Shown here one piece after another: positions 4,183 through 17,464 of a DNA stretch of 17,464 bases. Each line of letters begins with the position of its first letter. Within the stretch, counting starts at the first letter, position 1. This DNA is from an uncultured bacterium. Lineage in GTDB: Bacteria > Myxococcota_A > UBA796 > CAJQPC01. Below the pieces are notes generated by a model. It was not told where the DNA came from and did no database searches. It saw nothing but the letters and a program-made list of their open reading frames with translations. Where the stretch lies: assembly GCA_963934385.1 (NCBI GenBank), contig CAWVYO010000046.1:1-17464 (forward strand), read 5' to 3'. Position numbers and translations under genes: made by a program.

Positions 4183-7100
4183 CTACTGCTCAGCGTTATC
4201 CCAGCCAGAGGCACATTCAGGATCTTGAGAATCCGAGAAACCATCAAAATCATTATCCAAGCTGTCATTACACTGGTAAGCGACGTTGTAACCGCCCTGC
4301 TCAGTGGCCGTTGTAGATGTTGGGCAGTCGGGATCATCTGTGTCCACCCAACCGTCAGAGTCGTTATCTAGCGTGTCATTACACTCAGTGATTGGATCCG
4401 CTTCATCTGAATCAACTGCATCAGCACAGCCCAGGTCATCGGAGTCAATCAAACCGTCGCTGTCATCGTCCAACCCATTGTTACACACATAAGAAGAACT
4501 GTAGCCCCCTTGCTCGTAAAGAGTAGCCGAAGTTGCGCAGTCGGGATCATCTGTGTCGTACCAACCATCACCATCGTTGTCGATCGTGTCAGCACACTCC
4601 GCCAAGTGGCTCTCATCGGCGTCAAACGCCGACTCACAACCAAAGTCATCGGCGTCAGTGTAGCCGTCGGCGTCATCGTCAGTCCCGTTGTTACACACAA
4701 ACGAGGTCTCATAACCTAGCTCTGTTGCACTCCAAGAACAGTCAGGATCGTCTGAGTCGTACCAACCATCGCCGTCGTCGTCTGCACCATCGGAACAGGT
4801 TGCGTCAGCCACTGTCGCCTCGAGGTTATCCCAAGCGTCAAGACACTCACTGTCTTCACTATCTACAAGAGCATCCCCGTCATCATCTACGCCATTGTTA
4901 CACTCCGCAGCACCTGTGTACCCAGCCTCAGCGGTCGAGGTAACACAGTCGGGATCTTCGTCGTCAATCCAGCCGTCGCTATCGTTGTCACTGGAGTCAC
5001 TACATACGGATCCAGGGTTGGTCTCAAGGCTATCCCATGCGTTGTCGCAACCTGTATCGTTACCGTCAGTGTAGCTGTCGTTGTCGTCATCGGCGCCGTT
5101 GTTGCACTCACTAGTTATAAAGCCAACCTCTTCGCCCACATACCAGCAGTCTGGATCATCGTCGTCGATCCAGCCATCGCTATCATTGTCAGATTGGTCA
5201 TCACAAGAGGTACCATCGCCCTCTATTACATCAAACCCCGAGTCACAGTCGCTATCGGTTGAGTCCGCATAACCGTCTGAGTCGTTATCCAGTCCATCGG
5301 AGCAAGCCACTTGCCAGGAGCCATCCTCGGCGTAACCTAACAAGCAGTCTGGATCGTCATCGTCAGTCCAACCGTCGCCGTCGTTGTCACTCGAATCAGA
5401 GCAGGTGACGTCACCGTCCACCTCTGTATCCATTAGTGCCTCTAGGCAACCTGGATCCTCCGCATCGGCGTAGCCATCGAGGTCGTTATCAACACCGTCG
5501 TTACAGGCTGAAGGGAAGGCCCCTCGCTCGGCGTTACCAAACATACAGTCCGGATCAGTGTCGTCCACCCAACCATCGAGGTCATCGTCAATGGCGTTGA
5601 TACAGCTACCTGCCGCAAGGGCGTCCTCCTGGTTAGCCCAAGCGTTCAGACACTGAGGATCGTCACCATCTACAAAGCTGTCTAAATCGTTATCAACACC
5701 ATCGTGGCAGGCTGTCGATGCGAAGCTGTTGTCCTCTGAAACTCCCAACACACAGTCGGGATCATCCCCGTCTATCCAGCTGTCAAAGTCATTATCTAAT
5801 AGATCGGAACACGTAGAATCTGGATCGGACTCATTACTGTCAATCGCAAGCGCGCAGCCCGAGTCCTCAGCATCAACAAGAGAATCTGAGTCGTCGTCGA
5901 TACCATTCCCACAGACAGAAGTGCCCCAACCCAACTCAAGACCGTATACACCACAGTCAATATCGTCCGAATCGATCCAACCATCGGAGTCATTGTCTAA
6001 CTCATCCGAGCATGGGTCAGTCGACGACGCACTCAGCTCGAGGTTGTCCCACGCGTCGTCACAACCGGTATCGTTTGCGTCGATGTCACCGTCGGAGTCG
6101 TTGTCAACTCCATCGTTGCATTCAGCCAAACCAGCAGCACCACCGGACTCAACGCCACCATTAAAGCAGTCAGGGTCCTCATCGTCAACCCAACCGTCGG
6201 AGTCATCGTCCGTACCGTCCAAACAGGTGGCGTCTAGAGAGTCCTCATCTTCATCGAGCGCGTCTTCACAATCCGAATCGTCCGAGTCTATGTCTCCATC
6301 GGAGTCGTTATCAATGCCATCGTTACAGACGACAGTGGTGAACCCGACCTCCTCACCGCTAAAACTACAATCTGGATCATCTGTATCGACCCAACCATCG
6401 GAGTCATTGTCTTCAAAATCTGTGCAGACTGGCTCTGCTTGCTCGTAGTCCTGCCAAGCCACTATGCAGTCTGAGTCGGCTGCATCTATGGTGCCGTCTG
6501 AGTCGTTATCCAGCCCGTCATTACAAGCGAAACTTGTAGTTGCAGACTCATTCCCCGTAGATAGGCAGTCAATATCATCTGCGTCTGACCAGCCGTCTCC
6601 GTCATCGTCAGAGCCGTTCTCGCAGTCATCCGCATTGTCGTCTTCGACAGTGTCATAGGCGCTATCGCAACCTGTATCAACTTCGTCTATTAGCAGGTCG
6701 CCGTCGTTATCCACGCCATCGTTACACTCGGAGTCACCGTACCCCAGCTCATCCTCATCTTCGTCGCAGTCGGGATCTTGGTCGTCGATCCAACCATCGG
6801 AGTCATTGTCTAGACCGTCGCCATAGCAGGTGCCATCTACCTCATCGTCATCGAAACCGTCGTCGCAACCGATATCGTCGAAATCAACGTCACCGTCACC
6901 GTCATTGTCGCTATCGTCATTGCACTCGCTAGATGAGGTTCCTAACTCTTCGGTTCCGGTTGAGCAGTCTGGATCTAAATCATCACGCCAACCATCTTCG
7001 TCGTTGTCTTCGCCGTCAGTACAGTCAGTCGACGAGGAGCTCTCTACGTCATCTAGGGCATCAAAGCATTCAGAGTCATCAGTATCCACAGATCCATCAG

Positions 7101-9261
7101 AGTCATTATCTAGTCCGTCGTTACACTCGGTTGCACCAACACCTGACTCAACATCCGTCCCGTCACAGTCGGGGTCTTCAGCATCTATCCAGCCATCAGA
7201 ATCGTTGTCCTGAAGGTCGTTACAATCAGTAGAGATGTCTGTTTCGTCGTTGTCACTACCCTCGTTACAACCAGGATCTTCTGAATCAACAAGCCCATCT
7301 AAATCGTTGTCGCTACCGTCATTACACGCAGACGAAGAAGTTGACGGTCCCTCTTGATTATCAGTTGCCGTACCGTTGCAGCCCGGATCGTCATCATCTA
7401 TCCAGCCATCGGAGTCATTGTCCACCGAGTCGGAACATGCATACTCTTGCTCATAGAGGTCACCAGCATCATCGCAGTCATCGTCAGCAGAGTCGATGTC
7501 GCTGTCGCTGTCATTATCGACACCGTCGTTACACTGAGTTCCCGAATACCCCGTCTCTGTGCTACCTGTGACACAGTCCGGGTCTTCAGCATCTATGTAA
7601 CCATCGGAGTCGTTGTCCAACAGATCTTCACACTCACCTGCCTCAACCGTATCACTGGCTGCAGTACAGACCGTATCGAGAGCGTCTATATAGAAGTCTC
7701 CATCGTTGTCTATCCCATCGTTACACTCAGTTGAGCCCCAACCACTCTCGGAGCTGCCAACCGAGCAGTCTGGGTCATCCGCATCGATCCAGCCATCGGA
7801 GTCATTGTCCACCGAGTCTGAACAGTAGTCTTCCTCAGCGTCGTCCAGCGCATTGTCACAATCTACGTCATCAGAGTCGACCTTTCCGTCAAAGTCGTTG
7901 TCCGATCCATCGTTACACTCAGTAGTGCCGTAGCCCGCCTCGGTATCTCCTGCATCACAGTCCGGATCGTCTAAATCGATCCATCCGTCGGAATCGTTAT
8001 CCAATGAATCAGAACAGGCTTCTGCCTCGGTATCGTCGGCTGATGAGTCACAGTCAACGTCGAAACCGTCGATATCACTGTCACCGTCGTTATCTAAACC
8101 ATCGTTGCACTCAGTTGAGCCCTCAAAGCCAGATCCTTCGCTCTCGCCGTAGATACTGCCAAGACAACCCAGATCGTCAATATCAATCCAAGAGTCTGCG
8201 TCGTTATCCAGCCCGTCTTCGCAGTCGTTAAACTCGGTGTCATCTAAGGCATCGGCACAACTAGGATCAAAGAAGTCAGTAGACAGATCACCGTCGTTAT
8301 CAACACCATCGTTGCACTCAACTGAGCCATAACCGACCTCTTCATCCCCAGTCGTACAATCGGGATCGTACACGTCAGTCCAGCCATCGCCGTCGTTGTC
8401 TACCTCATCGGAACATCCCGGCAGAAACTCTGTAGCTAATGAATCGATACACTCTGGATCATCGGAATCAGTGAGACCGTCGTTATCGTTATCCAGACCA
8501 TCATTGCACTCATAATCGGTATAGTCGCCGTTCTCTACACCCGCTACTAGGCACTCTGGGTCGTCGGCATCAGTCCAGCCATCGAAATCGTTGTCTAGAC
8601 CGTCGTCACAGATACTTATTTCTGATTCATCAGTTGCGACATCGCACTCTTCGTCCTCACGATCAATGAGACCATCTTCGTCGTTATCTAGACCGTCATT
8701 ACACTCGCCATCGCCAAAACCAGTCTCCTCAATCGAAGAGTCGCAGTCGGGATCTTCCTCGTCAACCCAACCGTCTAAATCGTTATCGTCTCCGTCATTA
8801 CAGGGGTGAATTGGCGTATCTAAGAGTGAAAACCCTGTGATCGTCACCTCTTGAACGGTCTGATCAGCAAAGGAGTATTCTTCGGTTGCTGGAGAAGATG
8901 CGATCAAAGTCACACCACTCCAACCAAGGGCCAAGAAGCTCATAGAGGGACTGTTGTTCCCCTGCTTCAGCTCTAATATTTTAAACCCCTCGTCCAGATC
9001 ATACAGATAGGCGGCCTCTAACTCGGGGTCGTCTTCTACCCAGTCAGCGAACAATAGAGCGCCCTGCTCTCCAGCCACTATCTCATCTCCAGACGAATCT
9101 AAAAACGGGCTGCTTGGATCTATAATAACACCAACAGCATCTGCCATTCCCGATAGGGCGCTAGCCTCCTCAGTATCGATTCCAACCAAAATGGAAGTGG
9201 GGGTCTCTGGAGCCGTACAGGCAGACAACAAGATCGCCAATGGGATAATATTTAACTTCAC
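4183..9261 (-). CDS. Giant (1692 aa) highly acidic tandem-repeat lipoprotein built from about 46 Cys-bracketed DxDxDG-type putative Ca2+/metal-binding 21-mers (MopE-like / thrombospondin-type-3-like motif), preceded by a ~150-aa N-terminal domain of unknown function
   Basis: The GTG start at 9259-9261 has an AGAGG about 9 nt upstream. A lipoprotein signal 'MKLNIIPLAILLSAC' gives a lipobox L-S-A-C. Residues 154-1690 consist of repeats with core 'C-[NS]-D-G-x-D-N-D-x-D-G-x-x-D-x-x-D-P-x-C', alternating between a 'DGW[IVT]D..DPDC' subtype and an 'ECNDG.DND' subtype. Asp and Glu are extremely abundant, Lys and Arg almost absent, and there are about 93 Cys. A long ORF running through a repetitive region with no frameshifts argues that this is a real gene. 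Confidence 0.9.
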   Translation of the reverse strand: MKLNIIPLAILLSACTAPETPTSILVGIDTEEASALSGMADAVGVIIDPSSPFLDSSGDEIVAGEQGALLFADWVEDDPELEAAYLYDLDEGFKILELKQGNNSPSMSFLALGWSGVTLIASSPATEEYSFADQTVQEVTITGFSLLDTPIHPCNDGDDNDLDGWVDEEDPDCDSSIEETGFGDGECNDGLDNDEDGLIDREDEECDVATDESEISICDDGLDNDFDGWTDADDPECLVAGVENGDYTDYECNDGLDNDNDGLTDSDDPECIDSLATEFLPGCSDEVDNDGDGWTDVYDPDCTTGDEEVGYGSVECNDGVDNDGDLSTDFFDPSCADALDDTEFNDCEDGLDNDADSWIDIDDLGCLGSIYGESEGSGFEGSTECNDGLDNDGDSDIDGFDVDCDSSADDTEAEACSDSLDNDSDGWIDLDDPDCDAGDTEAGYGTTECNDGSDNDFDGKVDSDDVDCDNALDDAEEDYCSDSVDNDSDGWIDADDPDCSVGSSESGWGSTECNDGIDNDGDFYIDALDTVCTAASDTVEAGECEDLLDNDSDGYIDAEDPDCVTGSTETGYSGTQCNDGVDNDSDSDIDSADDDCDDAGDLYEQEYACSDSVDNDSDGWIDDDDPGCNGTATDNQEGPSTSSSACNDGSDNDLDGLVDSEDPGCNEGSDNDETDISTDCNDLQDNDSDGWIDAEDPDCDGTDVESGVGATECNDGLDNDSDGSVDTDDSECFDALDDVESSSSTDCTDGEDNDEDGWRDDLDPDCSTGTEELGTSSSECNDDSDNDGDGDVDFDDIGCDDGFDDDEVDGTCYGDGLDNDSDGWIDDQDPDCDEDEDELGYGDSECNDGVDNDGDLLIDEVDTGCDSAYDTVEDDNADDCENGSDDDGDGWSDADDIDCLSTGNESATTSFACNDGLDNDSDGTIDAADSDCIVAWQDYEQAEPVCTDFEDNDSDGWVDTDDPDCSFSGEEVGFTTVVCNDGIDNDSDGDIDSDDSDCEDALDEDEDSLDATCLDGTDDDSDGWVDDEDPDCFNGGVESGGAAGLAECNDGVDNDSDGDIDANDTGCDDAWDNLELSASSTDPCSDELDNDSDGWIDSDDIDCGVYGLELGWGTSVCGNGIDDDSDSLVDAEDSGCALAIDSNESDPDSTCSDLLDNDFDSWIDGDDPDCVLGVSEDNSFASTACHDGVDNDLDSFVDGDDPQCLNAWANQEDALAAGSCINAIDDDLDGWVDDTDPDCMFGNAERGAFPSACNDGVDNDLDGYADAEDPGCLEALMDTEVDGDVTCSDSSDNDGDGWTDDDDPDCLLGYAEDGSWQVACSDGLDNDSDGYADSTDSDCDSGFDVIEGDGTSCDDQSDNDSDGWIDDDDPDCWYVGEEVGFITSECNNGADDDNDSYTDGNDTGCDNAWDSLETNPGSVCSDSSDNDSDGWIDDEDPDCVTSTAEAGYTGAAECNNGVDDDGDALVDSEDSECLDAWDNLEATVADATCSDGADDDGDGWYDSDDPDCSWSATELGYETSFVCNNGTDDDADGYTDADDFGCESAFDADESHLAECADTIDNDGDGWYDTDDPDCATSATLYEQGGYSSSYVCNNGLDDDSDGLIDSDDLGCADAVDSDEADPITECNDTLDNDSDGWVDTDDPDCPTSTTATEQGGYNVAYQCNDSLDNDFDGFSDSQDPECASGWDNAEQ
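4186..8802 (-). repeat. Imperfect coding tandem repeat: about 23 di-repeats of ~200 bp (about 46 21-codon motif units plus linkers) inside the giant lipoprotein gene
   Basis: The first repeat Cys is residue 154 (codon at 8800-8802) and the last repeat ends just before the stop. The nucleotide sequence is GAC/GAT/AAC/GGN-rich and recurs with period ~100 and ~200 bp. Copies are diverged, with no long identical stretches, which is consistent with an old array under selection. Confidence 0.85.
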
Positions 9262-10343
9262 GGTAGCAACACCTCTACATCACCAGTTGGTGCCGGTTCA
9301 GGCTTCATTGATTCGGCGACAACTGCCCCCGTGACACCCACTCCTACAGTTCCAGCACCTACAGCAGCCCAGAAGGTCCAGCGAGATGTAAGCGGGGATA
9401 TAATCTCCAGAGTCGAGCTGTCTGGTGATCCCTCCTGAAACAACGTGGCCCTGTAGCTTACTCTTCCCTCTCTAGGGACCCTCACCGACCGCTCAACAAC
9501 CTGAACTCCAGGAGCTTCTACCCTTACAAGGTAAGTCCCTCGAGCAATATCTAAAGAGACCTTAGGACCCTCTCCAATTAGATGACCGTCCACATAGACC
9601 AGGGCACTATCGTTTCCCGTCTTAACCAGAAGCTCGGGCGAATCGGCCACCATTGTGACCTGTACATCCCCCCTAGTACCATCAGACGTGTCGACCTCGC
9701 GCAGCGCTGTGCCATAACCTTCTAATTGGATACGCACGCGGTGAGCCCCACTCTCAATCTCTGTTAGACTCAGGGGAGTTACACCAACAAGTTCGCTATC
9801 TAGATATACATTTGCACCGCTTGGGTTCGAGCCAAAAGAGAACAGACCTTGGGATGACTGTAACTGCTCAAAAATGAGTACATTGGCTCCATCCGTGTAT
9901 GTGAAGCTTCCAGAGACTGGTTCGTGCTGCGGCGCAATCAATGTGAACTCGTGATCGCCAACGGGCATGTCACTAAGCCTAATAGGAGCGCTACCCATAG
10001 CCTGACCATCAACTGTTACTGTCGCGCCAGTTGGGGTCACCATAAACTCTACTGTACCGCTGCCAGAGAATAGCTCTGCAGATACTTCACTGGGAACGCC
10101 CTCCGATATACCAACCCTAGTCGCCCAGGGAGTGAAGTTATCCGCCACGATCCTTATTGAGTGACTACCTACAGTCAACTCACCTTCATACGGGGTGACT
10201 CCGACCTCTACGTAATCGACGTAAACATTAGCGCCATCAACGTTTGAAACAACCGATATTGTTCCCATTGGATCAGCCAAGGCAGAGGATCCTACGAATA
10301 GGCATATAGGCAGCAGGTGTTTGATGGTTCTTATCAAGCTCAT
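9258..10343 (-). CDS. PEGA-domain protein (4 tandem PEGA domains) with N-terminal signal peptide and C-terminal transmembrane anchor
   Basis: The ATG at 10341-10343 has an AGGAGA about 11 nt upstream. The signal peptide is 'MSLIRTIKHLLPICLFVGSSALA'. Four segments fit the PEGA pattern G-A-x-V-Y-V-D-G-x-x-[LV]-G-x-T-P...G-x-H-x-[VI]-R-[IV]: 'GANVYVDYVEVGVTP..GSHSIRI', 'GATVTVDGQAMGSAP..GDHEFTL', 'GANVYLDSELVGVTP..GAHRVRI' and 'ALVYVDGHLIGEGP..GTYLVRV'. The C-terminal hydrophobic stretch is 'WTFWAAVGAGTVGVGVTGAVVA'. The TGA stop at 9258-9260 overlaps the GTG start of the downstream giant gene. Confidence 0.85.
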   Translation of the reverse strand: MSLIRTIKHLLPICLFVGSSALADPMGTISVVSNVDGANVYVDYVEVGVTPYEGELTVGSHSIRIVADNFTPWATRVGISEGVPSEVSAELFSGSGTVEFMVTPTGATVTVDGQAMGSAPIRLSDMPVGDHEFTLIAPQHEPVSGSFTYTDGANVLIFEQLQSSQGLFSFGSNPSGANVYLDSELVGVTPLSLTEIESGAHRVRIQLEGYGTALREVDTSDGTRGDVQVTMVADSPELLVKTGNDSALVYVDGHLIGEGPKVSLDIARGTYLVRVEAPGVQVVERSVRVPREGRVSYRATLFQEGSPDSSTLEIISPLTSRWTFWAAVGAGTVGVGVTGAVVAESMKPEPAPTGDVEVLLP

Positions 10344-10405
10344 TGGGCCAGTTTTCTCCTTTGAACAGCGATCGACACCTTACCACAGAGTAGAGGAAAC
10401 CACAG

Positions 10406-11206
10406 CTATCTGATCGCAATTCCATCGTGATAGATAGCCCAATAAACAGATCCTGCACCTAGAGAGAGTATTATCGGCAATGCTACTGCCCCCCATTGAG
10501 AGGGAGTAACACTCAAAATAACTGGCTCATAAACTGGAGCAGATCGCCCTGTCCTGGACGGCAACAGAGTCACCACCTCGACCCTATCCTCCATCCTGGC
10601 TCCTTCAACCTGGACTAAGTGACGCCCCGGAGAAAGCGATGAGATTTCCACTAATTCTTGATTTGAGATATTGCGCGTAACGCCATCAACTATCAACCTT
10701 GCAGCTGCTGGCTCTAATTCTACAATTAGATCGGCTGTGGTGCTAAACAGTAAGCCCGCTGCTGCCAGGTCGACCCCGCCTCCACGAGGTAGGTTCATCT
10801 GTAAAGGCTCTACAAGGAGCGCTCCTTCGGCTCCAAATATCTGTGTGTAGCCTATCTCTCTTGTACCCAAAAAACCTAATTCCACCCTCACCAGTAAATC
10901 CAAACCAAGGGACGTTACAGCGTCACGCCAACAAACTCCTCGTTCTCCGCAGCGCTCTCCTAAACTGGCAAGAATCCCCGCGTTAGAGCTTCCGTCCGAA
11001 AGCGAGGAGGTCAATTCGTAGTTGACGCTACCTCGAAAAAACTGCTCAAACCCCTCTACTGTCTTGGGGCTAACGGACACCGGAAGAGAGGCGTCATCAA
11101 CCACAGCCACCCCAACGCCCAAAGGCGCAGGCCAGCTCTCTACAGACTCTACAGCCTGTGAAACTCCACTCAAAAGGAACATGGGGATCAAGAGTTTCAA
11201 GCACAC
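10406..11206 (-). CDS. Secreted, membrane-anchored hypothetical protein with one PEGA-like segment
   Basis: The GTG start at 11204-11206 has an AGGA just upstream. The signal peptide is 'MCLKLLIPMFLLSGVSQA'. The PEGA-like stretch is 'ARLIVDGVTRNISNQELVEISSLSPGRHLVQVEGAR'. A C-terminal TM segment reads 'WGAVALPIILSLGAGSVYWAIY'. No other recognisable domain is present. Confidence 0.65.
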   Translation of the reverse strand: MCLKLLIPMFLLSGVSQAVESVESWPAPLGVGVAVVDDASLPVSVSPKTVEGFEQFFRGSVNYELTSSLSDGSSNAGILASLGERCGERGVCWRDAVTSLGLDLLVRVELGFLGTREIGYTQIFGAEGALLVEPLQMNLPRGGGVDLAAAGLLFSTTADLIVELEPAAARLIVDGVTRNISNQELVEISSLSPGRHLVQVEGARMEDRVEVVTLLPSRTGRSAPVYEPVILSVTPSQWGAVALPIILSLGAGSVYWAIYHDGIAIR

Positions 11207-11220
11207 TTTCCTAAAGCCCG

Positions 11221-11736
11221 CTACTGTAACAACCCTGACAATTCGGACTCAAGCTCGGACTCGAGCTGCCCGGCGTTCGGGGCTCCGACTGCAAACAGGT
11301 CGCCACTGGGGTCGATAATAAAGGTCATTGGCAGCATAGATACACCGTACCTCGCCGCAACAACACGATGATTGTCACGCAACACAGGGAAGTCTAGTCC
11401 CTGACCCTCGATCCAATTCGAAAGCTCACCGAGCTCGCCCTGATCAACGCTTACTCCAAAAACCTGAAGCCCGTCACGACGGTGGGAATTATAGACTGAA
11501 TTAAGTTCAGCCAACCCACTACCACCGCTATCTTTAGCAAAGAAATAGAGAACTACACTGCTTCGATTAGAAGGATCATCTGTAATCTCTGCCAAAGATA
11601 TCCTAGAGCCAGACGCTTCTGTTGTCGCCTCGTTAATAGCCGGAAGACTAAAAAGACTCGCTGGCTCACCTACACTTGGGACCTGAGCATTTGCGGCAAG
11701 AGAAAATAACAATGGAAATATTAGGCTCACGAACAC
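11221..11736 (-). CDS. Thioredoxin-fold (TlpA/ResA/redoxin-like) secreted protein with the CxxC active site replaced by SGGS, predicted redox-inactive
   Basis: The signal peptide is 'MFVSLIFPLLFSLAANA'. The protein is collinear with the TlpA/AhpC-TSA redoxin pattern: 'VVLYFFAKDSGGSGLAEL' corresponds to 'vLvnFWAsWCgPCr.E.P', so Ser sits at both Cys positions. Then 'GLQVFGVSVD', 'GLDFPVLRDNHRVVAARYGVSMLPMTFIIDPSGDL' and the cis-Pro 'LP' before the beta-strand are conserved. The annotated start is the GTG at 11736. The GTG two codons downstream (11728-11730) has better AAGAGG spacing and may be the true start. Confidence 0.7.
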   Translation of the reverse strand: MFVSLIFPLLFSLAANAQVPSVGEPASLFSLPAINEATTEASGSRISLAEITDDPSNRSSVVLYFFAKDSGGSGLAELNSVYNSHRRDGLQVFGVSVDQGELGELSNWIEGQGLDFPVLRDNHRVVAARYGVSMLPMTFIIDPSGDLFAVGAPNAGQLESELESELSGLLQ

Positions 11737-11821
11737 CTCTTAGTGGATAGGCTACCGAGTAGTGAGAGTATCTCTTATAGTATGCTCGGTAAACCCCTTG
11801 CTTTCAAGTTGAGCCAAAATA

Positions 11822-13054
11822 ATGATGCCAATTCCATCACTTGTCGCCAAACTGGCGCTCTCGATATCAGCCGAAGGAGGGCGACTGTTTGCTGTGGGCG
11901 GATGGGTTAGAGACAACATCGCTATGCGCGGTTCAAAGGATGTTGATCTAGAAGCTCACAAAATTTCCAGCGAGGATCTTGAGAGAGTTCTGCTAGCCCA
12001 CGGTAGAGTCGACTTTGTGGGGAAGAGCTTTGGGGTATACAAGGTCACAATAGGAGATCAAACGCTGGACGTATCACTACCTCGACGCGACTCATCCCCT
12101 ACATCTGTGCAGCCTGACCCTTTCATGGGAGTATCTGAGGCCGCCCGGCGCAGGGACATCACCATAAACGCTATAATGCTAGACCCCATCTCACAGGAAA
12201 TAGTCGATCCGTTCAACGGAGTTTCAGATCTAAAAAATGGGATTCTAAGAGAGGTGGACGCATCACTCTTTGGTGACGACCCCTTGAGGGTATTGCGCGT
12301 AGTCCGGTTCGCCTCTATTTTCGAATTCGAAATAACGGAATCGTTAGCCACGCTGTGTAGAGGTTGCGACCTTTCAGGGATACCCGTAGAGAGAATTCTT
12401 ACGGAATTGCACCGCATAATGCTCGAGTCACCAAACCCTCAGACCGCCTTAAAAGTACTTGAAGACCTAGGCCAACTCAACACGGTGATCCCATTCACCG
12501 CTGGAGCCTCTTTGGATCAAATGTACGACAACTGGAGCGCTGCGTCTGAATTGCGCGCTGATCTTAAGAGTGACGCTCAGCGGTTAGTTCTTATGTGGGG
12601 TGCCCTTTTACACGCATCTGGCAACCCACCTACTAAAGCACTTAGCTACTTTAAGATTCGTCGTTACGGAAAAGCACCATTAGTAAAACAGGTCACAGGT
12701 CTGCTTGAAACACTGCGTTCGGGTACCGAAGATCTAAACACACTTTTGCGTACAATGGCTGAGCACTGTGACATTTCGGCTGGACTAGCTCTCTATATTG
12801 CTACCAATTCCAGCGTAATACCTGGGTTAGATAGAACAGAGCTGTACGGTCGCGCAAAGACCCTAAATATAGTAGATGGTCCACTCCCTGTACTTATAGA
12901 CGGGCAGACCTTGAGTGACCTAGGTGTTGCAGATGGTCCGGATATGGGTCACTGGATAAAAGCAGTTCGCAAAGCTCAACTATCGGGAAGGCTCTCCACA
13001 AAGACAGAAGCCAGTAACTGGCTTGTAAACCAACTAGACCTCACTGGAGATTAG
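11822..13054 (+). CDS. tRNA nucleotidyltransferase (CCA-adding enzyme) / poly(A) polymerase family protein (class II polymerase-beta-type head domain; no obvious HD domain)
   Basis: The head-domain motifs are 'AVGGWVRDNIAMRGSKDVDL' (the GGxVRD nucleotidyltransferase motif with catalytic D..D) and 'RRDITINAIMLD' (the RRD-[FI]-T-I-N-A motif). Length is 410 aa. The ATG is at 11822 with a second ATG in tandem, and the RBS is weak. Confidence 0.8.
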   Translation: MMPIPSLVAKLALSISAEGGRLFAVGGWVRDNIAMRGSKDVDLEAHKISSEDLERVLLAHGRVDFVGKSFGVYKVTIGDQTLDVSLPRRDSSPTSVQPDPFMGVSEAARRRDITINAIMLDPISQEIVDPFNGVSDLKNGILREVDASLFGDDPLRVLRVVRFASIFEFEITESLATLCRGCDLSGIPVERILTELHRIMLESPNPQTALKVLEDLGQLNTVIPFTAGASLDQMYDNWSAASELRADLKSDAQRLVLMWGALLHASGNPPTKALSYFKIRRYGKAPLVKQVTGLLETLRSGTEDLNTLLRTMAEHCDISAGLALYIATNSSVIPGLDRTELYGRAKTLNIVDGPLPVLIDGQTLSDLGVADGPDMGHWIKAVRKAQLSGRLSTKTEASNWLVNQLDLTGD

Positions 13055-13057
13055 GAA

Positions 13058-14587
13058 ATGTTACCCCTTTTTATTTGCCAACTTGTAATAGCGGGGGCTT
13101 TAGCACAGGAGGTGTCGACTACACAGCCTGTGAGCCCAATGGTGGTTACATCGGATCCTGCAGAGGAGATAGACCAACCTTTCGAGCTTCGGGGGGATCT
13201 TCGAGCAGAGTACCTTATCGGGCAACCAATCATCGTAACACTGACAGTAAACAACACCAGTTCTGAGCCCGCTACCTTCCAAAACCTGTCCGCTCGGCCC
13301 TGGCTAGTCCGATTCAAAGTCGAAACTGTTGACTCTCGGGGAAACTCGGGTCAAACACAGACCAGGTTTACAACCCCACCAGAGGTCGACCCCATGACCC
13401 TCTGGACTATTCAACCACGGGGCATGAGGACTGTAGACATTGAGATCCCTTCTGGAGCCAGCCTGGGTCTCGGTGATTACAATATTTCAATTGAGGTAGA
13501 TGGCCAAGCTGGGCTCTTCGAGATCCCCACAACCCAGGTATCGATACAGGTCACAAATCCTGTAGCAGATCATCTCCCTTCTGAGGTAATGGGAATAGAG
13601 AGAACAGGGCTTCACGCTACCTGGCTTCACCGAGCTGGTGAAGGTTATGACCTCTACATACACTCGGTGAGTGGTAATCAGATTGACGGAGATAGCTTCA
13701 ACACCCACATTGCTCACCTATCTGACCCAATAGACCCCACTCTTTCGCGCTCCTTACCGGCCCAAGCCCTAAACAGGTTCATATACTGGAGACATGGCGA
13801 ACGAGGAATCGGCTTTATTGAAAGTAACGGATCGTCGCAGAACAGAGTCGACACAGTGGATCTGCCTTACCCACAGGTTGAGCTGCTAGCCCGCGGGATA
13901 ACAACAACATCTGGCGAGCTACTAATACCTCTTTGGATACCGTCACCAGCGGGCATTACCGGAGAGGTTAGAGTCGCAGAGATAAAAAATGGCAGACTCG
14001 AGGCCATCACATCGGTTGTAAGGATGCGCTCCAAACCAGTCTGGACCGAATCAGGTATCGACAGCTCTGGGGCTTTGAGGCTTCTCTTAGGGCACAGTGA
14101 AGGAGTTGACCTATACACCCTATCTGCCGCCACAGGACTCCCTGCCCGTGGACTAAGGGTGATCCAAGGTCGTGGAACCTCGACCAGAGGATCCTTTGGG
14201 ATCTCAACTTACGAAGAGCAGCAGGGGCTCTCTGTAATAACTGCCAACATTTCTGTGGGTGAGGCAGTAGATACTGAACAACCCACAGATGTGATCGCCA
14301 CTCAATGGTGGACACTCAATGGTAATCTCATCGATACCCCAACTCCTGTTGCGTTACCGGGCAACGGGAATCAAATAGAGAGCCTATTGGCTGGCCCCGA
14401 AGGGGCTTGGGTGCTCAACTATAACAGCGAGTCAGGTGTGAGTATGTTTGCGGACCAACAGGGTGAATCCAGCTCCATTGAACCTTGGGCGAACCTTATT
14501 TGGGACGCCAACGGAGATCTATGGATCCGTACCGTTAACGGGCTCGCTTTTGGAACCGCTCCTATCTCTGTCCAACCACCAAACTAA
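13058..14587 (+). CDS. Secreted hypothetical protein (509 aa) of unknown function
   Basis: The ATG is 4 nt after the stop of the preceding gene, with GGAGA upstream. The signal peptide is 'MLPLFICQLVIAGALAQE'. I recognise no conserved motif. It ends with TAA at 14585-14587. Confidence 0.7.
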   Translation: MLPLFICQLVIAGALAQEVSTTQPVSPMVVTSDPAEEIDQPFELRGDLRAEYLIGQPIIVTLTVNNTSSEPATFQNLSARPWLVRFKVETVDSRGNSGQTQTRFTTPPEVDPMTLWTIQPRGMRTVDIEIPSGASLGLGDYNISIEVDGQAGLFEIPTTQVSIQVTNPVADHLPSEVMGIERTGLHATWLHRAGEGYDLYIHSVSGNQIDGDSFNTHIAHLSDPIDPTLSRSLPAQALNRFIYWRHGERGIGFIESNGSSQNRVDTVDLPYPQVELLARGITTTSGELLIPLWIPSPAGITGEVRVAEIKNGRLEAITSVVRMRSKPVWTESGIDSSGALRLLLGHSEGVDLYTLSAATGLPARGLRVIQGRGTSTRGSFGISTYEEQQGLSVITANISVGEAVDTEQPTDVIATQWWTLNGNLIDTPTPVALPGNGNQIESLLAGPEGAWVLNYNSESGVSMFADQQGESSSIEPWANLIWDANGDLWIRTVNGLAFGTAPISVQPPN

Positions 14588-14597
14588 AAACCTACTT

Positions 14598-14638
14598 ACG
14601 CCAAAAACAAGAAGGGCCGACCCGGTTGGGGTCAGCCC
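14598..14638 (-). terminator. Rho-independent terminator, mainly for the minus-strand lipoprotein operon and possibly bidirectional: GC-rich hairpin 14614-14638, then a T-run on the minus strand
   Basis: GGGCCGACCC-GGTTG-GGGTCAGCCC forms a 10-bp stem with one mismatch and a 5-nt loop. On the minus strand it is followed by 'TTCTTGTTTTTGG', the reverse complement of 14600-14613. On the plus strand the downstream sequence 'TCACTAAATAAAAG' is not U-rich. It sits between convergent genes whose ends are at 14587 (+) and 14666 (-). Confidence 0.55.
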
Positions 14639-14665
14639 TCACTAAATAAAAGCCGAAACCCTTAC

Positions 14666-15514
14666 CTATTCTTCGTCACCACAAAGGTCTGGGTTAGCTG
14701 TGCAGAACTCAAAGAGATTGTTGTTACAGAACGCTGATTCAAGAGCTTCGAACGGCTCGTGCGCCAAATCCATATTATCTGCATCGCGAGCTTCCGATGG
14801 CATAGTACACTCGGTTAGACCGCCAATAGAGCTAGCGATATCATTACATGCGCCATCTACGATAGCGAAAGCGTAATCTACCAATCCATCATCAAGGGGT
14901 ACTGAGAAGGTGTTGAGTACAACTGTGTAGCTCTTACCAGGGTGTACAGAGGTGTCAATTGTACAATACTCAATGGCACCGCGACCACCGTGGGCATCGG
15001 GAAGGTTACCGTAACCCGCCATGTAGCACTCGTTGAACTCAAGGCGGACCTCGTTCCCGAGAGAATCCTCGTAAACAGCAGCAAAGTCGCCCATTTCGTA
15101 ACCTGGCGAGCCTGTATAGTAAGCAGTAAGACCTACCTCTAGGTCAATGTCACCATCATCTTTGTAGTTGTCTTGGTATGAATAGTTTTCGGTTGGAGAC
15201 TGCGCACTTACAGACTCGTTCCAAAACACTGCTTCTGGGTCGACCATAACGCAAACCTCTCCGCCTGTTCCAGCGAAAGTCAAGGTCGTTCCACCGTACG
15301 TCCCTGCATCTGCAGCTCCAATGCGACCGTAGTGGATCACCTCTGTACGAGAGTCCTGGAAGTCTCCAAGCTCAATAACACCCATCTCTCCTAGATCCTG
15401 AACACCTGGGTAGTTAGGGTTTGGCTCTGAGAGATATGTACGACCTTCACGGTCACAAGCTGCCAGCGTTAAACCGACAACAGAGATGGAAACAATAGCC
15501 TTAGATATAGTCAT
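14666..15514 (-). CDS. Cys-rich lipoprotein of unknown function
   Basis: The ORF track extends to a TTG at 15533-15535 (the bases are CAA on the + strand). The ATG at 15512-15514 gives a canonical lipoprotein signal 'MTISKAIVSISVVGLTLAAC' with lipobox L-A-A-C, and an AGAGGA lies 8-9 nt upstream. That start also removes the overlap with the upstream gene, leaving a 4-nt gap. The mature protein has about 8 further Cys. Confidence 0.7.
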   Translation of the reverse strand: MTISKAIVSISVVGLTLAACDREGRTYLSEPNPNYPGVQDLGEMGVIELGDFQDSRTEVIHYGRIGAADAGTYGGTTLTFAGTGGEVCVMVDPEAVFWNESVSAQSPTENYSYQDNYKDDGDIDLEVGLTAYYTGSPGYEMGDFAAVYEDSLGNEVRLEFNECYMAGYGNLPDAHGGRGAIEYCTIDTSVHPGKSYTVVLNTFSVPLDDGLVDYAFAIVDGACNDIASSIGGLTECTMPSEARDADNMDLAHEPFEALESAFCNNNLFEFCTANPDLCGDEE

Positions 15515-15518
15515 AATA

Positions 15519-16436
15519 TTAATCCTCTGCTCCAACTAGATAGTCCATTCGAACACTTACCTCTGAAGCAGATAACTCGGCTGCCCTGTAGGAATCAGCA
15601 TCTGGCTCAGTGAAAACATACGGTGCTTGTACCGTCCAATCTCCGTCGTAAATGTACTTACTCGGGAAGTTGATAAGGTCTGTAAAGTTAGCACCGTAGT
15701 AGTAATCGTTAGAATACTCGTTATTCTCCTGACCACGATCTAGATCGCAAGTTGAAAAGGTGAAGTTCTCACTAGGTGAGTCCATCCAACCCCAAATCTT
15801 CATGTCTTTTTCGTAGGTAACCTGCCAAAGGTCGAACTCTGCCTCGTAGTCACCATCAGCATTCTGCTGAAAGTCCAGATCTGAGACTATGTTGCCATCG
15901 GTGTCTAGATATTCTGACAGGAACGACAACTCACGGTCTGTGGTCATCTCAAAGAGTTCGTAGCAGTATGCTCGGAAATACTCATCGGAATCTACAACCT
16001 GCCCGAACTCATCGACAACAGGGTCACCCAAGGTGTCGCTGTACCAGTTCAAGATGTCATCGAAGTTCTTAAAGCGACCAGTGACGATCCTACAGGAGAG
16101 GTCCGAGAAACAGGCAAAGTCGTAACGACCAACTGTTCCGCCACCATATGGGTAGGTGTTACCAGGGGTTCCATCTACAATGATGGGGCCCATCTCGGGG
16201 TGTGGGTAACCGAAGTCGTCAGTGCTTACACTTGGAAACACACCGAGGATAACAGGGCCGATAGCCCTCACATCTTCGACTTCTTCCGTATCGCCTGTCT
16301 TTGCGTCAGTAACGGTAAAGACCGCTGCTTCACGTGGTAGAACGACTGTACCGCGAACATCAACCTGAGGGAGGTGCTCGTCAAAGGTGCAGCCTGTGAT
16401 CGCGATAACCGCGAGAGATAAAACAAGTGTCCGCAT
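15519..16436 (-). CDS. Lipoprotein of unknown function
   Basis: The ATG is at 16434-16436. The signal is 'MRTLVLSLAVIAITGC' with lipobox I-T-G-C. Only 2 nt separate the upstream gene's TGA (16439-16441) from this start. There are 5 further Cys and an Asp/Tyr-rich C-terminal half. I recognise no family. Confidence 0.7.
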   Translation of the reverse strand: MRTLVLSLAVIAITGCTFDEHLPQVDVRGTVVLPREAAVFTVTDAKTGDTEEVEDVRAIGPVILGVFPSVSTDDFGYPHPEMGPIIVDGTPGNTYPYGGGTVGRYDFACFSDLSCRIVTGRFKNFDDILNWYSDTLGDPVVDEFGQVVDSDEYFRAYCYELFEMTTDRELSFLSEYLDTDGNIVSDLDFQQNADGDYEAEFDLWQVTYEKDMKIWGWMDSPSENFTFSTCDLDRGQENNEYSNDYYYGANFTDLINFPSKYIYDGDWTVQAPYVFTEPDADSYRAAELSASEVSVRMDYLVGAED

Positions 16437-16438
16437 AA

Positions 16439-17464
16439 TCAGTACTCGTATTTAAGTGAGAGGGCGATTTGAAGTGGGCTCTGGCGAGAGTAGATGAACC
16501 AACGGTTCTGTGTACCAATACCAGTATTTACAGAGTCAGCCTGCTGCGCGTTTATAGAATTCTGCAGCTGACCAATCAGCCACAGTTTTCCTCGACGAAC
16601 GTCGATAGCTTGCTGAGCCATCAGGTCGATGTAGTAGGTTGGCTCAGTTCTAGCATAAGTTCCAACGTGGTCTTTCAACTGTGCATTTCCGCCGTACCCT
16701 ACAGTGTAGTAGTAACGGGTAACAGGGTAGCCAGAGAAGTATGAGAACTGGAACCCAAGACGCGTAGTCCAAGGATCGTTAGGGAAGTCATACGACCCTG
16801 CCATCTTGATTTGGTGACGAATATCAGTTGGAAGGTTTCCGTATTTCAGCTCGTATTGGGGTGGAATAGCCAACCCTGAATCTGAGCCCGTCTGGATGGT
16901 ACCACGTGAGACGACATAGGAATATGTCGAGAGCAGCTGCCATCTGTCGGAGAAGTTCTTCTTTAGTGATACGTCTGTCTGGTAGTAGTCACGACGAGAC
17001 ACTGTTGGTGTCCTTAGTCGTAAGTACTGAGCAGTATTACCGTTTGAGGTACCTACGAAGCTGTAACCATCTTGATCCCAAACAACGTTTGTCTCATCAA
17101 ACACGTAGACATTTGATGTGAACTTTGCAGAGAAGTTCACGTCGAATACGATGTCTTGGTAAAGCTCACGAGCACCACCAATTGTGAACTCGTCTGAGTG
17201 TGGTGCCGTAAGGTGCTCACCAACTCGGTTTGTGTTCTCTAGTGGAACCTGATCGGCCTCTTCAACAGAAGAGCTTGTGAAGTTGTCGAACAACTCGCCA
17301 ACAAAGAGCTTGTAACCAAACCCCGATTGAGAGAGGTCATTCGCAACACCGAGGTTTGAGATGCTGTTAAAGCGACCATAACCACCACGGATAACCGTAC
17401 GCTCATCACCCCAAGGGTCCCAAGCCATGTAGAATCGTGGTCCAAGAACGCTAACATCGACAAC
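16439..17464 (-). CDS. Outer-membrane beta-barrel protein, C-terminal portion (5' end lies beyond the window); possibly TonB-dependent-receptor-like or another large OMP
   Basis: The reading frame stays open to the window edge: upstream of the first Met the frame reads '...VVDVSVLGPRFY' with no stop. The sequence alternates aromatic and hydrophilic residues in the manner of amphipathic beta-strands and is rich in Y, G, N, T and S. The C-terminus '...LSLKYEY' ends in an aromatic residue, the typical beta-barrel assembly signal. The family call is tentative. Confidence 0.6.
   Translation of the reverse strand, partial: VVDVSVLGPRFYMAWDPWGDERTVIRGGYGRFNSISNLGVANDLSQSGFGYKLFVGELFDNFTSSSVEEADQVPLENTNRVGEHLTAPHSDEFTIGGARELYQDIVFDVNFSAKFTSNVYVFDETNVVWDQDGYSFVGTSNGNTAQYLRLRTPTVSRRDYYQTDVSLKKNFSDRWQLLSTYSYVVSRGTIQTGSDSGLAIPPQYELKYGNLPTDIRHQIKMAGSYDFPNDPWTTRLGFQFSYFSGYPVTRYYYTVGYGGNAQLKDHVGTYARTEPTYYIDLMAQQAIDVRRGKLWLIGQLQNSINAQQADSVNTGIGTQNRWFIYSRQSPLQIALSLKYEY

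Follow-up and report, generated by a model that had tools for sequence, protein, structure and literature searches.

What does a protein do that has the fold of an extracytoplasmic thiol-disulfide oxidoreductase and contains no cysteine, and is its role tied to a very cysteine-rich lipoprotein encoded in the same gene string? This question is raised by an open reading frame in a 17,464-nucleotide stretch of DNA from an uncultured bacterium (hereafter ‘the window’). A preliminary description of the window proposed that the encoded protein is a thioredoxin-fold redoxin in which serine has replaced both catalytic cysteines, and that it might act as a holdase or anti-scrambling factor for the lipoprotein. 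We examined the reading frame, its homologs and its genomic neighbors computationally.

Coding sequence and predicted export

The reading frame (positions 11221–11736, minus strand), as given in the ORF list, encodes a protein of 171 amino acids at longest. The likelier start is the GTG at 11730, indicated by both a database gene call and a ribosome-binding site, which yields a protein of 169 residues. A Shine-Dalgarno-like AAGAGG, read from the sequence at 11736–11741 (minus strand), is separated from that codon by a 5-nt spacer; because the same AAGAGG abuts the GTG at 11736, the latter is disfavored as a start. A homolog with 99% identity to the window protein (P0001) is 169 amino acids long. 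Residue numbers given here follow the window numbering (171-aa ORF); the clade column statistics were originally numbered 2 lower. A promoter and terminator scan returned no terminators and, at 11807–11779 upstream of the thioredoxin-like (Trx-like) gene, a single weak promoter-like site, a result no better than shuffled controls, and an Rfam scan of the window gave zero matches.

The N-terminus displays a hydrophobic core followed by A-N-A (read by eye), and residues 1–17 (11686–11736, minus strand) are predicted to form a Sec signal peptide; we infer that cleavage would occur after A-N-A, between MFVSLIFPLLFSLAANA and QV. Typical signal peptides are found in homologs (for example, MKALPLL...A.A).

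A cysteine-free protein of the TlpA/ResA fold

Profile and structural comparisons bear out the earlier assignment of the window protein to a TlpA/ResA-type thioredoxin fold. The protein matches Pfam AhpC-TSA (62.5 bits, E = 4.9e-17, with a cut-off of 26), and a profile of the Cys-less family to which it belongs matches ResA (4nmu; HMMER, E = 5e-14). An AF2 model of the window protein, with a core pLDDT of ~90, contains the TlpA-type N-terminal hairpin and central insert, and its top Foldseek matches are to ResA (4nmu and 1st9; E = 3e-11, TM 0.81); confidence in the model is low at residues 30–56, though part of that stretch is highly conserved. The same variant of the fold, with hairpin and insert, is present in ResA, TlpA, CcmG (DsbE) and StoA (CDD cd02966), of which ResA is the top match in both HMMER and Foldseek. 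These proteins are exported, as the window protein is predicted to be, and share with it the cis-Pro loop and the block ‘FPVL.D....v..RYgv..lP.tf.iD..G’.

Unlike these proteins, the window protein contains no CxxC and indeed no cysteine at all (a count of zero), and its active-site turn is two residues shorter. It further lacks the conserved Pro and Glu of helix alpha1 (the Glu corresponding to ResA Glu80), and its pI is acidic (4.25; net charge −13), not basic as in those proteins. Judged from its sequence, it is incapable of the reaction that defines the ResA/TlpA/CcmG family; the preliminary description was correct in stating that the protein, without cysteine, is unable to catalyze thiol-disulfide exchange and that no alternative CxxC is found elsewhere in it. 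The window protein scores 48.2 bits on the NCBIfam ResA model (NF002854), below its cut-off of 170 bits, and all 31 family members fall far under the curated cut-offs for ResA (NF002854), TlpA (NF047696), DsbE (TIGR00385) and StoA (NF041202).

Homologs also carry a JGI ‘peroxiredoxin’ label, which is an annotation artefact. The BCP/PrxQ peroxiredoxins have Pfam AhpC-TSA in common with the window protein, and its FFAKD...E bears a superficial resemblance to their FYPKD.TPGCT.E; unlike them, however, it has no peroxidatic Cys, and its cis-Pro ‘LP.T’ loop is TlpA-like. Matches on the peroxiredoxin side are weak (24 bits on NCBIfam thiol peroxidase NF006960, with a cut-off of 140, and E = 5e-5 to PDB 3drn). 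A peroxiredoxin register was ruled out by the far stronger ResA-type matches, by the TlpA-like cis-Pro loop, and by the CxxC that the nearest relatives carry.

Remodeling of the former active site

The former active-site segment, F65-F-A-K-D-S-G-G-S-G-L-A76 (11509–11544, minus strand), was placed by HMMER, MAFFT and hhalign alignments. It contains the F-F-A-K-D-S-G-G-S-G originally noted, with neither an in-frame TGA nor a frameshift. The nearest relatives that possess a CxxC are of the FFATYCEPCKKELP type (for example, P0081, P0088 and P0096; hhalign probability 99.9%, 165 columns, 30% identity). All share an FPVL.D....RY..LP block with the Cys-less family, and P0081 has an N-terminal LF(S/T)LPAINE as in that family. 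These relatives keep Cys-x-Pro-Cys, as well as the Glu and the Pro, and are basic, with pI values of 8.6–9.3 versus 4.3–5.8 across the Cys-less clade.

In all three alignments, the loop corresponding to the CxxC is two residues shorter in the window protein than in ResA or in these nearest relatives. S70 is positioned opposite the first Cys or inside the gap, G71 opposite the second Cys, and S73 opposite the Lys that follows the motif. An ungapped register equating DSGGS with WCGPC is ruled out by this two-residue deletion, on which the three aligners agree. The claim that serine has isosterically replaced cysteine at both positions therefore does not hold, since two residues are missing from the loop and only the closest relatives of the window protein share the serines. 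Nor is SxxS a conserved motif: two proteins with 89–90% identity to the window protein (P0002 and P0004) read ESGGA at the former active site, and farther family members carry K, E, R, H, A, D or T at the serine positions (as in KGGE or RGGD). Gly-Gly is the sole conserved pair of the SGGS stretch across the family. In the AF2 model, Gly71-Gly72 sits at the N-terminus of helix alpha1, which begins at G72. The alpha1 Glu and Pro, found in 94% and 78% of the CxxC relatives, correspond to G74 and A76 in the window protein and to variable positions across the Cys-less clade.

A conserved clade under strong constraint

The Cys-less state is universal in ~70 clusters (defined at 50% identity). CxxC is absent from 30 of 30 homologs and from 69 of 69 representatives, and nowhere in the 69 is there a conserved Cys; 41 family representatives were recovered at E < 1e-30, and every single-domain match above ~107 bits is without a CxxC. 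The 14 GTDB species matches are all uncultured MAGs, six of them labeled Myxococcota and four Deltaproteobacteria, with the remaining four labeled Proteobacteria, ‘uncultured proteobacterium’ or Enterobacterales. The possibility raised earlier, that orthologs with a uniform SxxS would point to a known non-redox subfamily, was borne out in part: the orthologs are uniformly non-Cys and correspond to a non-redox subfamily, but one that is not SxxS and not a named subfamily. No specific account of a Cys-less TlpA-like family, or of the repeat protein, turned up in the literature searched. On the evidence of these comparisons, the Cys-less family is a conserved clade of non-enzymatic redoxins of uncultured Myxococcota.

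Comparison of the Trx-like gene with its counterpart in locus L030 gave a dN of 0.093 with saturated dS, so that any dN/dS ratio is only approximate; the dN of aspS is 0.065, and those of the neighboring p266, polyA_pol and p509 genes are 0.22–0.26. The Trx-like gene is under strong purifying selection, with a dN close to that of aspS.

These data bear on an alternative in which the absence of cysteine is only apparent (faulty sequencing, a frameshift or recoding as selenocysteine would each produce it) or the gene is a decaying relic. A weak NCBIfam match to a ResA-like selenoprotein family (WAxxUGC, E = 6e-4) would fit the first of these; however, the codons of the active site (aaa gat agc ggt ggt agt ggg) include no TGA and the frame is unbroken, and the same Cys-less loop recurs in >60 independent clusters from many samples, by which selenocysteine, frameshift and sequencing error are effectively refuted. 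A pseudogene or relic is ruled out by a dN about as low as that of aspS, together with deep conservation. We consider this alternative vanishingly improbable. The protein is functional and not the product of a decaying gene, so the non-catalytic role suggested in the preliminary description is a sensible one to propose.

Conserved features outside the former active site

The N-terminal hairpin motif VGEPASLFSLPAINE (residues 22–36; 11629–11673, minus strand) is conserved in alignment A1, in which F29, L31, A33 and N35 are invariant; in the column statistics, conservation of P32, A33 and A37 is specific to the Cys-less clade. The cis-Pro loop L135-P136-M137-T138 (11323–11334, minus strand; the cis form is putative) is retained, with P136 invariant in both A1 and the CxxC relatives. 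The loop G151-A-P153, which connects beta5 to the C-terminal helix (11278–11286, minus strand), shows conservation specific to the Cys-less clade, and we take it to be located at the position of Gly92 in the E. coli thioredoxin structure. G151 is found in 90% of Cys-less members, and the figure for the CxxC relatives is 22% (as Asn). The column statistics further indicate that D121, R129, Y130 and P136 are kept in the Cys-less clade. R129 and D121 are common to the CxxC relatives, and only closer relatives conserve an RDNHR motif.

One alternative reading of the remodeled site is that it binds a small ligand or ion (Ca2+, another cation, or an anion at the Gly-Gly N-cap), in which case the protein might act as a periplasmic buffer or sensor, loosely in the manner of calsequestrin. 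Anions are commonly bound at a Gly-Gly that begins a helix, and such a pair is present at the N-terminus of alpha1; the shift to an acidic pI extends to the whole Cys-less clade. Redox-inactive thioredoxin-fold domains without a CxxC exist, calsequestrin being a non-redox example (PMC7949104). The net charge per residue within the clade is, however, modest at about −0.03 to −0.09, the column statistics reveal no conserved clade-specific group of ligand residues, whether acidic or basic, and R129 and D121 are, as noted, shared with relatives that retain the CxxC. We regard a role in ligand or ion binding as improbable.

Gene context and candidate partners

Directly downstream of the Trx-like gene lies p266 (10406–11206, minus strand), encoding an exported 266-residue protein whose C-terminus carries a transmembrane segment. 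The same strand encodes a 361-residue protein with four PEGA domains (9258–10343; Pfam PEGA, E = 1.5e-48, four stretches) and a giant acidic lipoprotein of 1692 residues with double-disulfide repeats (4183–9261; NCBIfam NF033662, 628.9 bits with a cut-off of 41, 42 repeats). The lipoprotein, estimated earlier to contain about 93 cysteines, has exactly that number: one belongs to the lipobox (LLSAC), and the 92 repeat cysteines make up 46 pairs, with spacings that alternate between 19 (in one case 20) and 12–19 residues. Asp and Glu account for 33% of its composition. The housekeeping gene aspS comes next in the same string. On the plus strand, divergent from the Trx-like gene, are a PolyA_pol/CCA-adding-like gene (11822–13054; Pfam PolyA_pol) and p509 (13058–14587), the latter encoding a 509-residue exported protein; the pair spans 11822–14587.

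Synteny was surveyed by tblastn across 29 loci. PolyA_pol adjoins every homolog that has enough flanking DNA, and the divergent PolyA_pol–p509 pair, located inside a long syntenic block, comprises the only universal neighbors of the Trx-like gene; this synteny may come from common descent and not from a common function. For P0081, the sole CxxC relative whose context was examined (on contigs of only 2 kb), the flanking genes are not PolyA_pol. The giant Cys-rich gene is found downstream in only one monophyletic sub-clade (the window, L030, L001, L011 and L016), and in a neighbor-joining tree this context is monophyletic and derived. The p266 gene adjoins the Trx-like gene in three sub-clades (the window, L030, L001, L002, L011, L016, L004-6/L020 and L012/24), and in L004-6/L020 and L012/L024 it lies downstream without the giant gene. 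About 15 lineages have neither the giant gene nor p266, and have a convergent PP2C gene directly next.

This distribution bears on the proposal that the 93-Cys lipoprotein, whose gene lies three genes downstream, has the Trx-like protein as its dedicated holdase or anti-scrambling factor, which would bind the repeats non-covalently while the 46 disulfides form. No terminator-like site separates the two genes, which lie on one strand and in one string; the string is kept in L030, L001, L011 and L016 (with Trx-like identities of 48–88%), and the cis-Pro loop, which contacts the substrate backbone in redoxins, is retained. A shared string is nevertheless weak evidence of shared function, because housekeeping aspS sits in it as well. 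The functional tie to the lipoprotein is also weak because ~70 clusters are Cys-less while the giant gene is downstream in one sub-clade only; the Cys-less state is older than, and independent of, that adjacency, as the ~15 lineages with neither gene illustrate. Moreover, because both proteins are strongly acidic, direct non-covalent binding between them would be electrostatically unattractive unless cations bridge them. We give little credence to a dedicated holdase; as read from gene order across the homologs, adjacency to the giant gene is a late, lineage-specific arrangement and not the cause of cysteine loss.

A second neighbor-based explanation is that the Trx-like gene and p266 form a two-gene module, in which the Trx-like protein would be a periplasmic subunit or assembly factor that docks, for example, on a domain containing C86 and C92-W93 of p266. 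These residues, along with LPRGGG, are invariant in p266 proteins (alignment A2), and the C-terminal half is PEGA-like in look; p266 matched no Pfam or NCBIfam family, and the homolog search recovered only six close relatives. In addition to their adjacency in three sub-clades, the start of p266 overlaps the Trx-like gene by 20–38 nt in the gene calls for five loci (L001, L002, L005, L006 and L012), an overlap suggestive of translational coupling, and L012/13 is basal in the tree, so that the pairing may be ancestral. Against such a module, p266 is absent within 8–10 kb in ~15 lineages, it evolves much faster than the Trx-like gene (66% versus 89% identity to L030; dN 0.238 versus 0.093), and its AF2 model, built from six sequences, has a pLDDT of 38.7. 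We hold this explanation to be unlikely; if a dedicated partner is encoded by a neighboring gene, p266 is a better candidate than the giant lipoprotein.

A proposed role in non-covalent binding

The reading that we favor, with a probability of roughly 55%, is that the window protein is a redox-inert, exported member of the TlpA/ResA branch that serves as a non-covalent binding module for a partner in the cell envelope. Its YCxPC turn would have lost two residues and both cysteines in an ancestor of the clade within uncultured Myxococcota; helix alpha1 would now be N-capped by a Gly-Gly from the former turn, and its redox-tuning Glu and Pro would have been released from constraint. Elsewhere on what had been the substrate-contact surface, the R129-Y130 helix, the cis-Pro loop, the LFSLPAINE hairpin and the G151-x-P153 loop, among others, would have been kept or newly fixed. 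The product would be a soluble, Sec-exported periplasmic protein, constitutively redox-inert, that may use the remodeled glycine-lined surface for adaptor- or chaperone-like non-covalent binding of a cell-envelope partner. Both the role in binding and the choice of partner are inferences; positions of the former active site other than Gly-Gly vary, so the functional surface could lie elsewhere.

A more speculative extension, which we consider doubtful, is that a hitherto undescribed ‘pseudo-TlpA’ family, its CxxC turn converted into a glycine-lined docking surface, provides dedicated periplasmic envelope-assembly adaptors or chaperones in uncultured marine and freshwater Myxococcota. Such a family would have been paired ancestrally with p266, and in one marine sub-clade it would have been co-opted into the operon of a giant Ca2+-binding, disulfide-stapled surface lipoprotein.

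The b/b' domains of PDI, ERp29, ERp27 and calsequestrin have a thioredoxin fold without a CxxC and act by non-covalent binding. They are eukaryotic, belong to other branches of the fold and have no detectable sequence relationship to the window protein, which they likely resemble in mode of action only.

The finding opens no long-standing question, and experimental testing is limited because the organisms are uncultured. Family members are labeled in databases as either ‘TlpA disulfide reductase family protein’ or ‘peroxiredoxin’; both labels are wrong, because the protein is without cysteine, and inventories of redox capacity for these MAGs will be overstated as a result. The clade represents a clean natural case of an extracytoplasmic redoxin turned non-catalytic: two residues were deleted, the tuning Glu and Pro were lost and the charge was reversed, with the cis-Pro surface retained. 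Its partner, if identified, would provide a bacterial periplasmic counterpart to the redox-inactive thioredoxin-fold binding domains of eukaryotes.

A cysteine-free TlpA/ResA-fold protein

The thioredoxin-like open reading frame at 11221..11736 (−) encodes 171 residues in the window, and its translation contains zero cysteines, as had been described. An AAGAGG sequence at 11741..11736 (−) touches the first GTG (11736) and lies 5 nt upstream of the second (11730); because of this spacing, and because a database protein 99% identical to the product (P0001) is 169 residues long and begins MSLIF, the true start is probably the GTG at 11730. The N-terminus, (MF)VSLIFPLLFSLAANA|QV, resembles a Sec signal peptide, and homologues carry more typical ones (for example MKALPLLAAVVGLALAPAASA).

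The preliminary assignment to a TlpA/ResA-like thioredoxin fold was borne out by family, profile and structural comparisons. Pfam AhpC-TSA matches residues 22–146 (62.5 bits, E 4.9e-17, cut-off 26). The top NCBIfam match, a ResA subfamily model, scores 48 bits where the cut-off is 170; all 31 aligned members of the cysteine-free family likewise fall far under NCBIfam cut-offs, and no curated NCBIfam model covers the family as represented by those 31. A phmmer search of the PDB found Bacillus ResA (E 4e-8) through residues 78–150 only, with the active site outside the alignment, and the family profile matched ResA 4nmu (E 5e-14) with the active site included. An AF2 model computed from the 31-sequence alignment has a mean pLDDT of 75 (∼90 for residues 60–170, <50 for residues 30–56), with a strand at 61–67 and a helix at 72–88. 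Its best Foldseek matches in the PDB are all ResA, DsbE or StoA-type proteins, led by 4nmu (E 3.3e-11, TM 0.81 normalised to target).

The former active site is a remodelled turn

The preliminary description had placed F-F-A-K-D-S-G-G-S-G without gaps on F-W-A-S-W-C-G-P-C-R, so that serine replaced both cysteines of WCxPC. Three independent methods (HMMER, MAFFT and hhalign) contradict this register. In the HMMER profile comparison ResA carries a two-residue insertion (‘wc’) and its second cysteine falls on the first glycine of the family's Gly-Gly; by hmmalign of 179 sequences, all canonical relatives (FFATYCepCKKELP) have two additional residues at the active-site turn. MAFFT sets VVLYFFAK--DSGGSGLAEL opposite VVVSFFATYCEPCKKELPVL, and hhalign, matching the cysteine-free alignment to 24 CxxC relatives with a probability of 99.9% over 165 columns, pairs FFAKDS--GGSGLAELN with FFATYCEPCKKELPVLQ.

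In every alignment L75 and L78 match the conserved hydrophobic positions of helix alpha1. G71 takes the position of the second cysteine, S73 that of the lysine two residues beyond the CxxC motif, G74 that of the conserved glutamate (the counterpart of ResA Glu80) and A76 that of the conserved proline of helix alpha1; S70 lies opposite the first cysteine in HMMER and hhalign and beside the gap in MAFFT. Because these four residues align in this way, with a two-residue deletion, the former CxxC site is a turn that has been shortened and remodelled; it did not arise by isosteric exchange of both cysteines for serine.

SxxS also fails as a motif, since the serines are not conserved among relatives. 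Two proteins 89–90% identical to ours (P0002 and P0004) have ESGGA, and more distant members have DKGGE, EKGGQ, NKGGK, QRGGA, ARGGD, AHGGE and others; Gly-Gly, present in ∼70% of members, is the sole conserved element of the site. Selenocysteine recoding, hinted at by a weak NCBIfam WAxxUGC match, is excluded because the active-site codons (aaa gat agc ggt ggt agt ggg) include no TGA; the frame is unbroken.

Cysteine loss is fixed across a constrained clade

A word-indexed search returned 30 homologues at 38–99% identity, 30/30 without the cysteines. Searching 1.84 billion representatives exhaustively with the profile gave 41 proteins at E<1e-30; CxxC was absent from every single-domain match above ∼107 bits, canonical FFATYCEPCKKELP proteins first appeared under ∼105 bits, and filtering left 69 cysteine-free clusters at 50% identity. 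Of the two states considered earlier for orthologues, CxxC or SxxS, neither describes the family: the 30 homologues and 69 clusters are cysteine-free throughout. Five proteins of ∼690–1280 aa (P0065, P0070, P0083, P0116 and P0164), with 3–5 tandem TlpA-like domains and CxxC-type sites (FFAPNCGYCKK), score against the cysteine-free profile nearly as high as single-domain members.

Column statistics were computed for the 69 cysteine-free members and, for comparison, 36 CxxC relatives (residue numbers as printed there run 2 below those of the window). Kept in both groups are G23, A26, F29, L31, N35, F65, F66, L75, L78, P117, V118, L119, D121, V126, R129, Y130, P136 (cis-Pro), D142 and G145. Cysteine-free members have lost both cysteines, the glutamate (94% in CxxC relatives) and the proline (78%), and have newly fixed P32, A33, A37 and G151. 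The last (90% versus 22% of CxxC relatives) lies in the loop joining strand beta5 and the last helix, at what we take to be the position of E. coli thioredoxin Gly92, on the substrate-contact surface beside the cis-Pro loop. The cis-Pro loop is kept, and the adjacent loop is newly conserved. We also observed a clade-wide charge reversal, from basic in the nearest CxxC relatives (pI 8.6–9.3) to acidic across the whole cysteine-free clade (4.3–5.8); the window protein is its most acidic member (pI 4.25, net charge −13).

Throughout a sizeable clade of uncultured Myxococcota, the redox-inert state has become fixed. The 14 matches among GTDB species representatives all come from uncultured MAGs, labelled Myxococcota (6), Deltaproteobacteria (4) or, for the other 4, Proteobacteria, ‘uncultured proteobacterium’ or Enterobacterales, the last label probably being wrong. 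Two MAGs titled ‘uncultured Enterobacterales bacterium’ (L020, CAZCVP010000019.1; L022, CAYXGP010000003.1) carry the Myxococcota-type syntenic locus, and these titles are probably taxonomic mislabels. The window is probably marine, since Tara Oceans is among the sources of the neighbouring protein.

Selection was gauged against the close relative L030, whose thioredoxin-like protein is 89% identical. For this gene dN is 0.093, with dS saturated (ratio ∼0.03); dN is 0.065 for aspS, 0.238 for p266, 0.219 for PolyA_pol and 0.255 for p509. The gene is as constrained as aspS and far more than the other three; it is functional and not a relic.

Genomic neighbourhood

A 14-nt gap separates the thioredoxin-like gene from that of a 266-residue protein, p266 (10406..11206, −). 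Genes for a protein with four PEGA domains (9258..10343, −), a 1692-residue lipoprotein (4183..9261, −; 4-nt overlap with the PEGA gene) and aspS (2340..4103, −) follow, and we found no terminator-like sites in 9000–12100. Farther along are a 434-residue SPFH/Band_7 protein with two C-terminal GYF_2 domains and Pro-rich linkers (995..2299, +; its counterpart in L030 comes after aspS) and a 266-residue protein with a weak HATPase_c-like C-terminus (32..832, −; 19 bits, under cut-off), a type also found beside aspS in L001 and L011.

The giant protein had been described accurately as a lipoprotein with about 93 cysteines and about 46 disulfide loops. It has exactly 93 cysteines, one of them in the lipobox (LLSAC); the other 92 lie alternately 19 (once 20) and 12–19 residues apart. 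Its NCBIfam match is NF033662 (‘acidic double-disulfide repeat’; 628.9 bits, 42 repeats), and no Pfam family matches. Asp and Glu make up 33% of it, and its ∼46 C-x18-C units carry D-N-D-x-D-G-type acidic motifs resembling Ca2+-binding thrombospondin type-3 or MopE-like repeats. L001, L011 and L030 have orthologues of ∼1620–1690 aa; the L016 copy is cut by the contig end. Antisense plus-strand ORFs within the gene (e.g. 5729..6448, 239 aa, Ser/Pro-rich) are most likely by-products of repetitive GAY/AAY/TGY codons, not genes.

We examined 29 further loci. A divergent PolyA_pol gene (11822..13054, + in the window) lies upstream of the thioredoxin-like gene in every locus with sufficient flanking DNA, p509 (13058..14587, +) is seen at all of these except two short contigs, and an OMP-p305-p289 block is present wherever the contig extends far enough. 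Among L001–L030 the syntenic block (11822..17428) is conserved across loci whose thioredoxin-like proteins share only 35–50% identity. Its members are a TonB-dependent-receptor-like OMP (CarboxypepD_reg, Plug, OMP_b-brl_4), two Cys-containing lipoproteins (p305 and p289), and p509 (509 aa, exported, without family) and PolyA_pol, both divergent from the thioredoxin-like gene.

Downstream, p266, PEGA and giant genes occur together only in the window, L030, L001, L011 and L016, with aspS next wherever the contig reaches. L004–L006/L020 and L012/L024 have a p266 homologue only (its start overlapping the thioredoxin-like gene by 32–38 nt in some gene calls), with convergent PP2C and then TGT beyond it; in ∼15 other lineages the thioredoxin-like gene leads directly to PP2C and TGT. 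In an approximate NJ tree rooted on CxxC relatives, giant-gene loci form one derived clade, and p266-only loci its sister plus a basal branch. Since the giant-gene loci are one derived clade and other cysteine-free lineages have no giant gene downstream, cysteine loss is older than, and independent of, adjacency to the Cys-rich protein. At L002 (ERZ23487349 scaffold_16846), a second contig bearing a protein (P0012) identical to that of L001, the C-terminus of the p266 homologue differs and is Cys-rich, and UbiA and flavoprotein genes follow in place of PEGA and giant genes; either the locus has truly been rearranged or the assembly is chimeric.

Function of the cysteine-free family

The protein is an exported TlpA/ResA-fold protein whose redox chemistry was lost when two residues were deleted and both cysteines, Glu and Pro disappeared, and it is under strong constraint; the view of it as redox-dead and non-catalytic was right. 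Non-covalent binding may proceed through the remodelled former substrate surface, and the protein would serve in the periplasm as an adaptor or chaperone-like factor.

The partner proposed earlier, with the protein as a possible holdase, was the adjacent 93-Cys lipoprotein. This is a weak candidate because the adjacency is restricted to one lineage, both proteins are acidic and the housekeeping gene aspS lies in the same string; the link is at best a lineage-specific add-on. The most plausible local, neighbour-encoded partner is p266, though it is not universal. Besides its signal peptide it carries a transmembrane segment at the C-terminus, its C-terminal half is PEGA-like, and it matches no family in Pfam or NCBIfam; C86-x5-C92-W93 and LPRGGG (139–144) are invariant in lineages only 32–36% identical, and its AF2 model (pLDDT 38.7) is unusable. 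Binding of an ion or small ligand by the thioredoxin-like protein is possible.

Proteins with a thioredoxin fold but no CxxC, and with a non-redox role, form an established category, exemplified by calsequestrin (PMC7949104). We found no cysteine-free TlpA-like bacterial family described in the searchable literature. The protein is a catalytically dead thioredoxin-fold protein, a known kind, and for such cysteine-free proteins the annotations ‘TlpA disulfide reductase’ and ‘peroxiredoxin’ are misnomers.
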